Source: Naegleria gruberi
Lineage: Eukaryota
DNA length: 8,205 nucleotides
Strand: one strand, 5' to 3'
Assembly: GCA_000004985.1 (NCBI GenBank)
Contig: GG739081.1
Under the pieces are notes generated by a model. That model saw nothing but the letters and a program-made list of their open reading frames with translations. It searched no databases and was not told the DNA's origin. This document shows positions 1 to 8,205 of this stretch, one piece after another. A program made the translations under genes and the position numbers. Numbering within the stretch: the first letter of the stretch is position 1; every line of letters starts with the position of its first letter.

Positions 1-542
1 AAAATCACTTGTTTGAAATGATTGACAGAAATATCCATTTGATATTTTAATAATATCTGTAAAACCTTCGAATTGATATTTCAAATTAGTTGTTTCATTT
101 GTTGAATCATCAATAACTGCTGTACCATGACTTCCACATCCACATCCCAATACTACACCTTGACTTGTTAGAAATTTAGTATCATCATAACCACAACTGA
201 CATCAATTGGTGTAAATTGTATTGGAAATTTCAATAATAAAGGTACTGAACTACTTTTAATACCTGCACAACATCCATTAGAATCAGATCCTGCAACATA
301 AACTTGAGAATTTCTTGTAATAAATACAGAATGAGTATTGTTAGCTCCTACTTTACAAATAGGTTGACCATCAAAATAATCACTTGGAAGTTTAACTGGT
401 TTCTTTTGAGATTCAGTATCTGAAATTCCCAATTGATTAGCTGAATTAGATCCATTTACAAATACTGAACCATCAATTGAAATGAAAATACTGTGATATC
501 CACCTCCAGCTCCGTCAATTATTTTATATTCATTGATGACAC
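1..542 (-). CDS. RCC1-like gene, exon 3 (partial; continues beyond window start)
   Basis: 180 codons with no stop end exactly in frame at position 1. Translation: GVINEYKIIDGAGGGYHSIFISIDGSVFVNGSNSANQLGISDTESQKKPVKLPSDYFDGQPICKVGANNTHSVFITRNSQVYVAGSDSNGCCAGIKSSSVPLLLKFPIQFTPIDVSCGYDDTKFLTSQGVVLGCGCGSHGTAVIDDSTNETTNLKYQFEGFTDIIKISNGYFCQSFQTSDF. The roughly 50-aa GxxH(S/T)...G.V...G.N..GQLG repeats indicate RCC1/BLIP-II-type propeller blades. Confidence 0.75.
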
Positions 543-618
543 CTATATTGTTGTTGTTGTTGTTGTAATTTGTTAACAAATGAATTTACAATCAAACTTA
601 TAATCATTAAAAACAAAC
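543..618 (-). other. intron 2 of the RCC1-like gene (76 nt, GTTTGT...ATATAG), containing a (TTG)6/(CAA)6 microsatellite
   Basis: Removing it joins 'gct gaa g' + 'gt gtc atc' into an uninterrupted RCC1 repeat frame that stays open to position 1. Its length mod 3 = 1 matches the frame offset. It is more than 80% A+T. The track ORF reads through it, giving LFLMIISLIVNSFVNKLQQQQQQYRCHQ* and then hitting a stop. Confidence 0.6.
548..565. repeat. (TTG)6 / (CAA)6 microsatellite inside intron 2
   Basis: Direct reading: ttgttgttgttgttgttg. Confidence 0.9.
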
Positions 619-762
619 CTTCAGCTCTAATGAGACCTCTAATTGGAGAACCACCTAATGCTCCAGATACTCCACAACATAATTCACCATGAGCATTTGT
701 TCCAAAACTCAAAATTCTTCCTTCGAATGTGATGAGATGAGTGTGATGACGACCAGAAATTA
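619..762 (-). CDS. RCC1-like gene, exon 2 (…VISGRHHTHLITFEGRILSFGTNAHGELCCGVSGALGGSPIRGLIRAEG)
   Basis: The frame is open with no stop. It carries the classic RCC1 repeat signature G-x-H-T-x-L-x-x-x-G-x-(I/V)-x-S-F-G-x-N-x-x-G-E-L. It is the real part of track ORF 530..712, which starts with TTG rather than ATG. Confidence 0.65.
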
Positions 763-853
763 CTAAATATCATGATTTTGTTCAACATCATTTTTACAGA
801 TATTATTATTATAAGACTAAATTTAACAAACGCAAATAACTAAAATTTCATAC
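763..853 (-). other. intron 1 of the RCC1-like gene (91 nt, GTATGA...TTTAG)
   Basis: The interval is AT-rich with GT/AG ends. Its length mod 3 = 1 accounts exactly for the frame change between exon 1 (codon tops ≡2 mod 3) and exon 2 (≡1). It contains in-frame stops. The joined codon g+ta = GTA (Val). Confidence 0.6.
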
Positions 854-1130
854 CTTTTACAACATTGATATTTGGTAAATGAACCACTTTTTGATAAATA
901 GCATCAGCAATCTTTGTAAGATCGGAATTAGTATCATCAATTTTAAAAGGTTCAAATTCTGAAACTGAAGTGGAAGAAACTTTGAATACGTGCTCTCCTG
1001 GAAATACAGCATGTGAAAGTGACATTAATTCACCAACAAGATATAACGTTGAACCTTGTTTGTTATTGTAAATGTTTAGCTTGTTTTCGTACATTTTTTT
1101 TATTTCAAAATTTGAATCAAAAGGATTCAT
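854..1130 (-). CDS. RCC1-repeat (regulator of chromosome condensation-like beta-propeller) protein, exon 1 (5' end uncertain)
   Basis: This is the track ORF 840..1130, MNPFDSNFEIKKMYENKL...NINVVK. Its C-terminal GMKF* tail is better explained as the start of an intron: the exon ends '...gta aaa g' and is followed by GTATGA at 853-848. The second ATG (M13, aaaaaaaATG) has the more A-rich context. Upstream of the first ATG the same frame stays open for 14 more codons (ARDLKRHQLNIKSK) before a TAA, so the true start could lie upstream or in the gap. Confidence 0.6.
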
Positions 1131-6034: not shown

Positions 6035-6089
6035 AAACAGTAATTTTCTCTCTTAATCCAAATAAATATTAAAATAATAATATTCATAT

Positions 6090-6359
6090 TTACCCTTCAT
6101 ATTTACATGGTGAATTTACTTGAATTAATTCAAATTCATTTATAGAATTATCATATATACATAAATAACAATGACGATAATGTCCAATTCCAACTAATTT
6201 ACAATCCCTTGAAACAGCAACAAGTGTATCCGAATAATTTAATAACCATTCATCATAGGATTTATCATCATTATCATTGGAACGATCATATATTTTTAAT
6301 TCCTTTCCGATCCAATTTAAAGAATGATCAATATTAAATGCCTTTTGAATTGTTTGCAT
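6090..6359 (-). CDS. small hypothetical protein / possible first coding exon (MQTIQKAFNIDHSLNWIGKELKIYDRSNDNDDKSYDEWLLNYSDTLVAVSRDCKLVGIGHYRHCYLCIYDNSINEFELIQVNSPCKYEG)
   Basis: The track ORF 6090..6455 is trimmed to the internal ATG at 6359-6357, which sits in a perfect A-rich context (aaaaaaaaATGcaa). The 32 residues upstream are translated from AT-rich low-complexity DNA. That leaves 89 codons with ordinary AT-rich-organism codon usage. The segment VAVSRDCKLVGIG weakly resembles GNAT acetyltransferase motif A, but this is not secure. Confidence 0.5.
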   Translation of the reverse strand: MQTIQKAFNIDHSLNWIGKELKIYDRSNDNDDKSYDEWLLNYSDTLVAVSRDCKLVGIGHYRHCYLCIYDNSINEFELIQVNSPCKYEG

Positions 6360-6465
6360 TTTTTTTAATTTTAAATAAAAAATAACAATGTAAATAAATG
6401 AAGATGATTCCAATATATAATTGAATGATTTGTGTTTGCTCAATTTAATGATCAAATTCAGAAAT

Positions 6466-6609
6466 TTATTCCTCTAAAAAAAACTTCACCCGTTTTGTGT
6501 TGCCAGCTGAATCATGATCAGCACTCCAAACAGATGAACAAGTACTAAAACTGATATTATCCGATAATTTATTGGAAACAAAGTTAAAGTACTCCATATT
6601 AATTTCCAT
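6466..6609 (-). CDS. candidate small ORF or upstream exon (MEINMEYFNFVSNKLSDNISFSTCSSVWSADHDSAGNTKRVKFFLEE*)
   Basis: 47 codons with an ATG at 6609-6607. It lies partly in a locally GC-richer block, and rare codons (ggc, cgg, gtg) cluster at its 3' end. A plus-strand frame is also open over the same block (6429-6545), so strand assignment is ambiguous. It could splice (GTGAAG…AAAAG) onto the 6090..6359 CDS. Confidence 0.2.
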   Translation of the reverse strand: MEINMEYFNFVSNKLSDNISFSTCSSVWSADHDSAGNTKRVKFFLEE

Positions 6610-6611
6610 AA

Positions 6612-7687
6612 ATAGATACAATTCCAGAACTTGCTGGTATTACATATTTAACTACAGTTACAACTAATCAATTAAATAATTTAATAATTGCCATAACTAC
6701 CAAGAAACAATGTTATGTATTTGATTCAGAATGTAAATCATGGAAACTTAAATTTAAATTACCTTTATTTAGTTCTGTTCAGATTGACAGTCAATTTGAG
6801 AATGTTTATATTGGAACAAGAGATTGTATTAAGAAATATTAGATAATGTAACAGACTATTCAAAAGAATCTCCTATTTGGGAAAGTAAGATTAGTTCAAA
6901 GTATAAAATGAATTGTGCTAAATCAAAGAATGAAATGTATATCATACATAATATTAATACAATCTATGTAATGGATTTATTGAATGGATCAACAAAAAGA
7001 GAAATTAATTTAAATCAATCAGATTATAATAATATTGATGTATTATATGTGGATGAAAAGGAGGGACAGCTAAATTTCCCTCATTAATAATAAGAGAATA
7101 TGATGAGAATATGAAACCAGACTGTTTGCAATTTTTAAATGGTATTGATTTTGGAAATAAGAAGTTGTGGTTTGTTGATAATGAAATTGCTAAATACTTT
7201 GAATTTCAATTTGACTTTGAAAATGAGGTTCCAGATGGTCATGATGATGATATTGTAATCGGAGGAAGTTATGAATTTTTTGACAAATATCAAGTTTGTA
7301 TCTATGTAAGAAAATCAGAAGTTTCAAATAATTATGATTTTCCAGTATATTTACTTTACAACGAATCAGTCAATGATGATTTTATGAAAACAAAGAGTTT
7401 AACATTTTCAGAATTCATTCCAAAATTGAAATTATCTGAATCCGTTGTCATTGAGCATAACTGTTCATATGATTTATGAAGAATTGATTCAAAAATCAAT
7501 CATTCATCCTCAAACCAAACTTATTGATAATAATATCCTTGTTGAGAAGTATAAGAAAATGGTGTGTGGAGTCGACAAAGAGGATTACTTTGGATTAGCA
7601 CGAAAATTTAACAGCTCTACAATCAACTTTGATAATACTGTATTTCTAAAGATGGATTGTTGCCTTGGCCATGGATTGTTGTTCTGA
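6612..7687 (+). CDS. plus-strand coding region, hypothetical protein; four overlapping open segments in frames 0/2/1/2 (6612-6842, 6833-7087, 7057-7479, 7430-7687); possible pseudogene, draft-sequence frameshifts or unresolved introns
   Basis: By hand translation, segment 1 (frame 0, 76 codons, stop TAG at 6840) reads IDTIPELAGITYLTTVTTNQLNNLIIAITTKKQCYVFDSECKSWKLKFKLPLFSSVQIDSQFENVYIGTRDCIKKY*. Segment 2 (frame 2, 84 codons, stop TAA at 7085) reads …DNVTDYSKESPIWESKISSKYKMNCAKSKNEMYIIHNINTIYVMDLLNGSTKREINLNQSDYNNIDVLYVDEKEGQLNFPH*. Segment 3 is the track ORF 7111..7479 and is open from 7057. Segment 4 is the track ORF 7445..7687; it has a TTG start and is open from 7430. Four long stop-free segments on one strand are not expected by chance at about 80% A+T; each stop-free run of 76-84 codons has a chance probability below 0.001. 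The opposite strand is full of stops. Confidence 0.5.
7111..7479 (+). CDS. best-supported segment of the plus-strand gene (MKPDCLQFLNGIDFGNKKLWFVDNEIAKYFEFQFDFENEVPDGHDDDIVIGGSYEFFDKYQVCIYVRKSEVSNNYDFPVYLLYNESVNDDFMKTKSLTFSEFIPKLKLSESVVIEHNCSYDL)
   Basis: It is in the track with an ATG start, but the frame is open 18 codons upstream (KGGTAKFPSLIIREYDEN-M), so the ATG may be internal. Confidence 0.5.
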   Translation: MKPDCLQFLNGIDFGNKKLWFVDNEIAKYFEFQFDFENEVPDGHDDDIVIGGSYEFFDKYQVCIYVRKSEVSNNYDFPVYLLYNESVNDDFMKTKSLTFSEFIPKLKLSESVVIEHNCSYDL

Positions 7688-7743
7688 AATTTCGTTTTTA
7701 AAAACCAAATAAAAGAATAAGAACACGAAAAAATGGTTTAAAA

Positions 7744-7750
7744 GATAAAA
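7744..7750 (-). terminator. RNA polymerase III T-run terminator of the 5S gene (…gtcTTTTatcTTT)
   Basis: A T4 run sits directly after the 3' end of 5S helix I on the transcribed strand, and a second T3 run follows 3 nt later. Confidence 0.6.
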
Positions 7751-7870
7751 AGACTACAGCACCACAGGTTCCCAAGTTGTCTCCAACCTCAGTACTGATG
7801 TGGCTCGACGATGCTTAACTTCTCAAATCGGACGGGATGAGGTGCATTCATCGTGATATGGCCGTAGCCA
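7751..7870 (-). rRNA. 5S ribosomal RNA gene (about 119-120 nt)
   Basis: The minus strand reads tGGCTACGGCCATATCACGATGAATGCACCTCATCCCGTCCGATTTGAGAAGTTAAGCATCGTCGAGCCACATCAGTACTGAGGTTGGAGACAACTTGGGAACCTGTGGTGCTGTAGTCT. It carries the universal 5S blocks GGCCATA-C, CCCGTCCGAT, AAGTTAAGC, AGTACT, GGGAA and GGTGCTGTA. The 5' GGCTACGGC pairs with the 3' GCTGTAGTC over 9 bp, including two G·U pairs, forming helix I. It is immediately followed on the minus strand by TTTT (plus 7747-7750), a pol III terminator. Confidence 0.93.
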
Positions 7871-7888
7871 TCAACTACCTTGATTTCT

Positions 7889-7898
7889 GAAATATAAA
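7889..7898 (-). promoter_or_regulatory. TATA-like element (TTTATATTT) about 20-28 bp upstream of the 5S start
   Basis: On the minus strand the upstream sequence reads …gaactgaTTTATATTTcagaaatcaaggtagttga|tGGCTACGGCC. Upstream TATA-like boxes at about -25/-30 are required for 5S transcription in several fungi, plants and insects. Confidence 0.35.
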
Positions 7899-7969
7899 TC
7901 AGTTCACCCTTTGCATGGCTTCAGAACAATAACAAAGAAAGAGATAAAGGATATTACAATGTAATATAA

Positions 7970-8205
7970 TTAGGCCGAAAACAGACCTCTTTTATTCACC
8001 AGTGCATACGTATGTTTCTTCAATTGTTCATCTATAACTTTGTGAATTTGTTTACAACCCTCTATTGCATGTTCCAAAACCTTTTCAAATTGATCCAAAG
8101 ATAATTTCGAATCCATTTGTAATAAAGTGACCTTATCATGTTTTGGAAGAAGAGCAATTGGTACATCTGGACCACCAGCACAATCTTCAATATAATTAAA
8201 TCTGT
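7970..8205 (-). CDS. 3' end of a protein-coding gene (partial; continues beyond window end): …RFNYIEDCAGGPDVPIALLPKHDKVTLLQMDSKLSLDQFEKVLEHAIEGCKQIHKVIDEQLKKHTYALVNKRGLFSA*
   Basis: 78 codons with no stop end at TAA (7972-7970). The composition is coding-like at about 35% GC against a much more AT-rich background. It is not in the track because no start codon lies within the window. Confidence 0.6.
   Translation of the reverse strand, partial: RFNYIEDCAGGPDVPIALLPKHDKVTLLQMDSKLSLDQFEKVLEHAIEGCKQIHKVIDEQLKKHTYALVNKRGLFSA

Follow-up and report, generated by a model that had tools for sequence, protein, structure and literature searches.

A probable duplicated pseudogene behind a coding stretch in several reading frames in Naegleria gruberi

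Duplicated pseudogenes of eukaryotic multigene families decay with a deletion bias, and the locus described here resembles them in having intact paralogues in the same genome, in carrying several frameshifting deletions, some of them between short direct repeats, in lacking both a start codon and a large part of the interior, in being made of fragments that are still recognisably coding, and in being unannotated. We found no difference in kind between this locus and such pseudogenes. With a probability of roughly 0.85, positions 6461-7712 (plus strand) represent an unannotated, non-processed (duplicated) pseudogene of a family specific to N. gruberi, which makes the locus a further case of a known kind that will not surprise a specialist.

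The window, by which we mean the whole stretch of DNA that was analysed (8205 nt), is a complete scaffold of N. gruberi NEG-M, in which two contigs (1-1213, 1213 nt, and 6035-8205, 2171 nt) are linked over 4821 N. The N. gruberi genome assembly is Sanger-sequenced (PMC9928731 Table 1). Around the locus the two contigs carry the following features:

10-543, minus strand: exon of an RCC1-like gene, 100% identical to the N. gruberi 'predicted protein, partial'
6093-6360, minus strand: open reading frame in neighbouring constrained sequence, without lesion
7751-7869, minus strand: full-length 5S rRNA gene of eukaryotic type (Rfam, 105 bits)
7973-8203, strand not given: RNase PH-like exon with an open reading frame

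Three RCC1-like exons match the gene model at 98-100% identity and are separated by GT..AG introns of ~90 and ~70 nt, and the neighbouring genes are readable with the standard genetic code. The 5S gene lies 38 nt past the stop codon of the pseudogene, on the opposite strand. No tRNA was found with ARAGORN, and scans of 6036-8205 for promoters, terminators and repeats returned nothing above chance expectation.

The original prediction had described four stop-free runs on the plus strand (76, 84, 140 and 85 codons), and when the runs were recomputed their coordinates were reproduced exactly, together with the overlaps of 7, 28 and 47 nt and the frame path 0→2→1→2:

6612-6839, plus strand: run 1, 76 codons, then TAG
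6833-7084, plus strand: run 2, 84 codons, then TAA
7057-7476, plus strand: run 3, 140 codons, then TGA
7430-7684, plus strand: run 4, 85 codons, then TGA

For comparison, 6612-7687 (27% G+C) was shuffled 2000 times with its dinucleotide counts preserved. The shuffled sequences had a longest run of 53 codons on average and 138 at most, against 140 observed, and their four longest runs together came to 167 codons on average and never to more than 280, whereas the four in the window total 385. On the minus strand no stop-free run exceeded 66 codons.

When the segments were concatenated they matched two N. gruberi proteins, P0001 (E = 1e-171) and P0002 (E = 1e-151). The first of these, 584 aa long, is NAEGRDRAFT_74207 (XP_002670698.1), and the second is 587 aa long. 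By tblastn and frameshift-aware protein-to-DNA alignment, window 6527-7709 resolved into seven collinear blocks that correspond to residues 36-584 of P0001, with an amino-acid identity over aligned codons of 82% to P0001 and 78% to P0002. The tblastn check that had been proposed with the prediction has an answer: the four segments are collinear with paralogues that are read in a single frame, and so are two short pieces upstream of them and another at the C-terminus.

An exhaustive HMMER search also returned two fragments from the environmental metagenome ERZ929261, here called L001 and L002, whose contigs were compared with the window as DNA. L002 is a copy of the P0001 type: its protein is 94-96% identical to P0001, its DNA is 91% identical to the window, and its own frame is broken by an extra A. 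No convincing likeness was found between the upstream gene of the window and the region upstream of L002. L001, an Illumina metagenome contig, is much closer to the window, being 98.3% identical to 6532-6704 (3 mismatches in 173 nt). It has an ATG-initiated ORF, shows none of the window's deletions in the part that the two share, and is broken elsewhere, with a jump from residue ~108 to ~316, a frame change and stops. The remnants and blocks identified from these comparisons are as follows:

6461-6481, plus strand: 5' leader remnant GAAATTTATTCCTCTAAAAAA, 21 nt, 100% identical to L001 15-35
6482-6531, plus strand: degenerate N-terminal coding remnant, from the L001 alignment and a weak alignment to P0002 residues 20-35
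6527-6574, plus strand: segment a, frame 2, QTDEQVLKLILSDNLL, P0001 residues 36-51
6577-6612, plus strand: segment b, frame 1, NKVKVLHINFHK, 12/12 identical to both paralogues
6615-6839, plus strand: segment c, frame 0, DTIPELAG...CIKKY, P0001 residues 77-151, from run 1
6842-7072, plus strand: segment d, frame 2, DNVTDY...DEKEGQL, P0001 residues 155-230, from run 2
7075-7461, plus strand: segment e, frame 1, FPSLIIREY...VVIEHN, P0001 residues 367-495/501, from run 3
7463-7657, plus strand: segment f, frame 2, VHMIYEEL...FLKMD, 85% identical to both paralogues, part of run 4
7659-7712, plus strand: segment g, frame 0, VALAMDCCSEISFLKTK followed by TAA, the ancestral C-terminus, with the stop where both paralogues have theirs

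Within the N-terminal remnant, window 6486-6506 could not be aligned. The block boundaries abut or overlap throughout (6577/6577, 6612/6612, 6848/6833, 7072/7072, 7461/7457 and 7657/7656), and therefore leave no room for introns. Relative to P0001, the window copy lacks the ATG as well as residues 52-63 and 231-366 (P0001 numbering), and needs six frame corrections. The description of the four coding runs was thus correct as far as it went, but it missed the frame changes at ~6575 and ~6613 upstream and at ~7658 downstream: the full frame path is 2→1→0→2→1→2→0, of which 0→2→1→2 is the middle, and the last 9 codons of run 4 (7658-7684) lie outside the homologous frame, the real stop being the TAA at 7710-7712.

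Wherever two blocks meet, the window has on balance lost nucleotides that the intact relatives retain, and all the lesions are deletions. There are at least eight of them in 1.25 kb, six of which shift the frame. Because DNA of the paralogue type covers roughly the 5' third of the gene, protein alignments supplied the sizes given below for the three downstream lesions:

After 6481, plus strand: loss of the ATG region, 25 nt gone; L001 36-60 (CTAATTAAAAAATGAAGAGAAAGTC, with the ATG at 47-49) has no counterpart
Between 6529 and 6530, plus strand: deletion of ~47-49 nt relative to L001
Between 6542 and 6543, plus strand: 3-nt in-frame deletion relative to L001, within segment a
6575-6577, plus strand: deletion of 34 nt relative to L002 or 31 nt relative to L001, 'EIPQGLKDQLGR' lost, frame 2→1
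6606-6614, plus strand: 1-nt deletion, CATAAAATAG in L001/L002 versus CATAAATAG in the window, frame 1→0
6834-6841, plus strand: 7-nt deletion (gap at L002 1097), frame 0→2, creating the TAG at 6840
7071-7074, plus strand: junction of the large deletion, ~390-406 nt, frame 2→1
7459-7468, plus strand: deletion of 14 nt relative to P0001 (STYLI) or 20 nt relative to P0002 (TYLINFE), frame 1→2
7656-7658, plus strand: 2-nt deletion, frame 2→0

In the protein alignment with P0001 the deletion at ~6575 amounts to 12 residues minus 2 nt (34 nt), and in L002 its site is flanked by a direct repeat of GAAA. The 7 nt lost at 6834-6841 (3 residues minus 2 nt in the protein alignment) make up one full unit of a direct repeat in L002, AAATAT(A)AAATAT. 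The large deletion corresponds to 136 codons minus 2 nt (406) relative to P0001 and to 130 codons minus 2 nt (388) relative to P0002, while the 2-nt deletion near the 3' end leaves an out-of-frame tail, CCLGHGLLF, which runs after 7658 to the TGA at 7685-7687. There is no usable start codon, the homologous frames containing no Met before 6908. Once the frames are corrected there are no nonsense codons derived from substitutions, and the fragments are still nearly stop-free, presumably because the decay is recent.

The homopolymers that had been pointed out in the overlaps of the runs are present, but they are incidental, since the actual breaks are multi-nucleotide deletions save for one 1-nt loss in an A run. 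The related proposal, that homopolymer indel errors had broken an otherwise intact frame, did not hold: only one of the at least eight lesions fits it, the A4→A3 change between 6609 and 6610, which is the only homopolymer lesion, and the others comprise losses of 2, 7, 14-20, 31-34, ~47-49 and ~390-406 nt together with the loss of the ATG. Homopolymer error was ruled out by these lesion sizes, by the Sanger platform and by the unbroken neighbouring genes.

The parent family is small and apparently restricted to the species or genus. An exhaustive search over 1.84 billion representatives yielded no more than 10 clusters; every named one was from N. gruberi, and five lay on one 261-kb scaffold. 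When the family alignment was used in a further, word-index search, P0001 and P0002 alone were recovered, and a scan of JGI metagenomes for relatives gave no match. More distant N. gruberi paralogues are NAEGRDRAFT_74118, 74123, 74124, 74125, 53271, 48197 and 67571. At its 3' end the gene model of NAEGRDRAFT_74118 runs through a 5S gene in antisense orientation, where its final ~100 residues would be expected.

No Pfam family scored above threshold and a sequence search of the PDB gave no significant match. We modelled P0001 with AF2 from a nine-sequence family alignment (mean pLDDT 75), and in the model the N-terminus is disordered, residues ~65-350 are all-beta and the C-terminal part is alpha/beta. 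This all-beta stretch resembles the beta-propellers BamB, YncE and WDR5 in the PDB (Foldseek E ~1e-11 to 1e-10). For the C-terminal region the resemblance is to SUKH domains (SMI1/KNR4, Syd, YobK, FBXO3) and is weak, which hints faintly at a SUKH/SMI1-KNR4-like fold; when the C-terminal 235 residues were modelled alone (pLDDT 82) there were zero Foldseek matches. It is to this part of the parent protein, with its weak SUKH-like resemblance, that segment e corresponds. According to the model, the large deletion, which takes P0001 residues 231-366, would remove about three predicted propeller blades and a linker helix, so that even a frame-corrected product would lack an intact propeller.

The original prediction had listed a recently decayed pseudogene among its explanations and had closed by remarking that the protein was either much longer than annotated 'or it is dead', and the collinear paralogues and the disabling deletions support this option. 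On this reading the locus would have arisen as a copy of a member of a small N. gruberi-specific family of ~585-aa proteins, which are predicted to begin with a short tail, to form a beta-propeller over residues ~65-350 and to end in an alpha/beta region that weakly resembles the SUKH fold. It would have diverged from the intact paralogues to a dS of ~0.12 (measured to the P0001-type copy), and since then it would have lost its ATG and suffered at least eight deletions, six of them frame-shifting, one of which would also have taken ~130-136 propeller codons. What looks like a gene in four frames would then be the ancestral coding sequence, recently decayed. The lesions most probably arose in vivo, and the AAATAT and GAAA repeats suggest slippage or microhomology-mediated deletion. 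A functional product is presumably absent, and searches of the N. gruberi proteome returned no protein from the pseudogene locus.

We also analysed how fast the locus has been changing. In a Tajima-type count over 386 shared columns, unique amino-acid changes numbered 29 in the window, 28 in P0001 and 38 in P0002, and there is consequently no excess of amino-acid changes on the window lineage. A comparison of dN with dS had been proposed as a check, and against L002 (Nei-Gojobori, 135 codons) it gave dN 0.090, dS 0.116 and an omega of 0.77, with the differences spread evenly over the three codon positions (13/11/12); since the window lineage has no excess of changes, however, this omega cannot be assigned to the pseudogene branch. 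Two readings fit these numbers: the locus may have been inactivated recently compared with the time since duplication, or the family as a whole may be under weak constraint and evolve almost neutrally. That both fit is the chief weakness of the pseudogene case, but neither of them speaks against it. The parent family appears to evolve fast.

We then weighed whether the real locus might be an intact gene and its lesions an artefact of sequencing, cloning or assembly, arising from low-coverage Sanger reads, from AT-rich plasmid clones deleted in E. coli or from mis-assembled paralogous reads. The scaffold is tiny, has a 4.8-kb gap and was probably covered at low depth; two of the lesions are bounded by short direct repeats, a pattern that cloning deletions also leave, and one affects a single nucleotide of an A run. 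Moreover, we found no independent record of the window's ORFs nor an assembly of the exact locus, and the window lineage shows no excess of amino-acid substitutions. Against this, 1.25 kb holds at least eight lesions, whereas ~1.5 kb of constrained sequence elsewhere on the two contigs (the RCC1 exons, the 5S gene, the RNase PH-like exon and the ORF at 6093-6360) holds none, and if the lesion density of the pseudogene locus held over the 1535 nt of neighbours the probability of seeing zero lesions would be ~5e-5. Lesions of 2-406 nt are atypical of Sanger base-calling errors, the Sanger platform is not prone to homopolymer errors, and the annotated proteome holds no intact, near-identical source copy, its best match being at 82%. 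L001, which belongs to the same sub-lineage at 98% DNA identity, was sequenced separately and is broken at other sites, and therefore decayed copies of this gene exist in nature. We consider an artefact unlikely.

It is very unlikely that the gene is functional and rescued, either by splicing (through introns or 'intronisation', for example at 6733-6842 and 7397-7481) or through a shortened protein, for instance one made from the 122-aa ORF at 7111-7479. The fragments remain stop-free, and the GT..AG pairs at 6733-6842 (110 nt) and 7397-7481 (85 nt), on which the introns offered in the original prediction were based, do exist, are phase-compatible and are near the ~70-90 nt of the RCC1 introns; GT and AG are nevertheless frequent in DNA of 27% G+C, and such pairs are expected by chance. 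Collinearity rejects the intron reading itself, as the homologous blocks abut or overlap with no intron-like insert between them, and removal of the two candidates would cut out conserved codons whose translation is ~75-80% identical to the paralogue proteins. There is also no evident GT..AG pair at 7073, and the shifts at 6575, 6613 and 7658 would need mending too. Finally, the ATG is deleted with no in-frame Met before 6908, and about three propeller blades are predicted to be gone.

Programmed recoding, by ribosomal frameshifting or by a variant code such as that of some ciliates, can practically be dismissed: the overlap of the open segments and the A-rich runs in the overlaps give it a superficial appeal, but the neighbours use the standard code, the shifts run in both directions at junctions that share no common motif, and P0001 and P0002 are read in a single frame and have extra residues at every junction, so that the shifts are deletions and not conserved recoding sites. 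An alternative genetic code or a ciliate origin, raised by the AT-richness of the DNA, was likewise rejected, the neighbour being 100% N. gruberi and read with the standard code.

With the locus taken as a duplicated pseudogene, its surroundings raise a further idea, namely that this is a lineage-specific family with fast turnover whose copies are tied physically to dispersed 5S rRNA genes, since a 5S gene recurs at the 3' end of two members, the pseudogene and NAEGRDRAFT_74118. We regard this as quite unlikely. If 5S genes and family copies did duplicate or move jointly, or if 5S insertion truncated copies, this heterolobosean would have a 5S-linked duplication unit of an unusual sort. Weaker still is the idea that the damaged stretches are being 'intronised' and that the locus still yields a product. 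A search of the literature on Naegleria pseudogenes and on 5S gene organisation found nothing directly relevant.

For annotation, the two ORFs called in prokaryotic style, 7111-7479 and 7445-7687, are pieces of a dead eukaryotic gene that should not be taken for proteins, and the locus should carry a flag as a pseudogene of the NAEGRDRAFT_74207 family. It offers a small, clean example of all-deletion pseudogene decay in Naegleria, and together with the broken environmental copies it hints at a quick turnover of this Naegleria-specific family of propeller/SUKH-like proteins.

The pseudogene shares the scaffold with the following genes and exons:

1-1130, minus strand: RCC1-repeat gene, partial, annotated as P0003, with two GT..AG introns.
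6093-6360, minus strand, running into the N gap: open first exon, reading MQTIQKAFNIDHSL...SPCKYEG and followed by GTAAAT; it matches nothing in Pfam.
7751-7869, minus strand: 5S rRNA gene, matched over its full length by Rfam at 105 bits.
7973-8203, minus strand: open exon with an RNase_PH_C match (PF03725, E = 7.7e-6).

The pseudogene and the 5S rRNA gene are convergent, with 38 nt (flank 7713-7750) separating the stop codon of the former from the latter, and on the minus strand a T-run lies immediately beyond the 3' end of the 5S gene. The gene model of a paralogue, NAEGRDRAFT_74118 (P0006), ends in the residues '...KKTTTPQVPKLSPTSVLMLDDA', which are a 5S gene translated in antisense and stand in place of the final ~100 residues; when this end was compared with frame 1 of window 7702-7815, 21 of 26 residues were identical. 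Since a 5S gene follows the pseudogene and antisense 5S sequence closes the P0006 model, a 5S gene is therefore found at the 3' end of two family members.

On the other side, the exon at 6093-6360 is divergent to the pseudogene, ~100 nt from its 5' remnant, and probably belongs to a real gene truncated by the assembly gap. The exon at 7973-8203 is probably the 3' part of a gene for an exosome RNase PH-like subunit that continues past the scaffold end. As a reference for how real introns look in the N. gruberi genome we used those of the RCC1-repeat gene, at ~764-854 and ~544-613, both GT..AG, the second of which contains a (CAA)n run.

Sequences of the family were also found in the ENA metagenome ERZ929261. 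The first, L001 (contig k127_324391, 1-530), is 98.3% identical at the DNA level to window 6532-6704 and retains an intact ATG and N-terminus, and it jumps from family residue ~108 to ~316 with a change of frame and stop codons. Either L001 represents a second copy or allele of the pseudogene's sub-lineage, one that decayed independently, or it is a chimeric metagenome contig. The second, L002 (contig k127_366876), is an environmental orthologue of the intact paralogue P0001, with 94-96% amino-acid identity. At ~1132, in TCAAAAAGAATC, it carries one additional A (A5 versus A4 in the window, A4 being also implied for P0001 by its protein sequence), which breaks the frame, and homologous reading resumes in a different one. 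Either this frameshift is real or the additional A is an error of the assembly.

The parent family (P0001, P0002 and P0005-P0012) gave no match to any Pfam domain, and its predicted architecture is a beta-propeller followed by a weakly SUKH-like C-terminal domain. Among the 1.84 billion representative proteins searched, the family occurs only in N. gruberi, plus unnamed environmental fragments, and five of the paralogues are grouped on a single 261-kb scaffold. Between family copies omega is ~0.8, suggesting that the family evolves fast.
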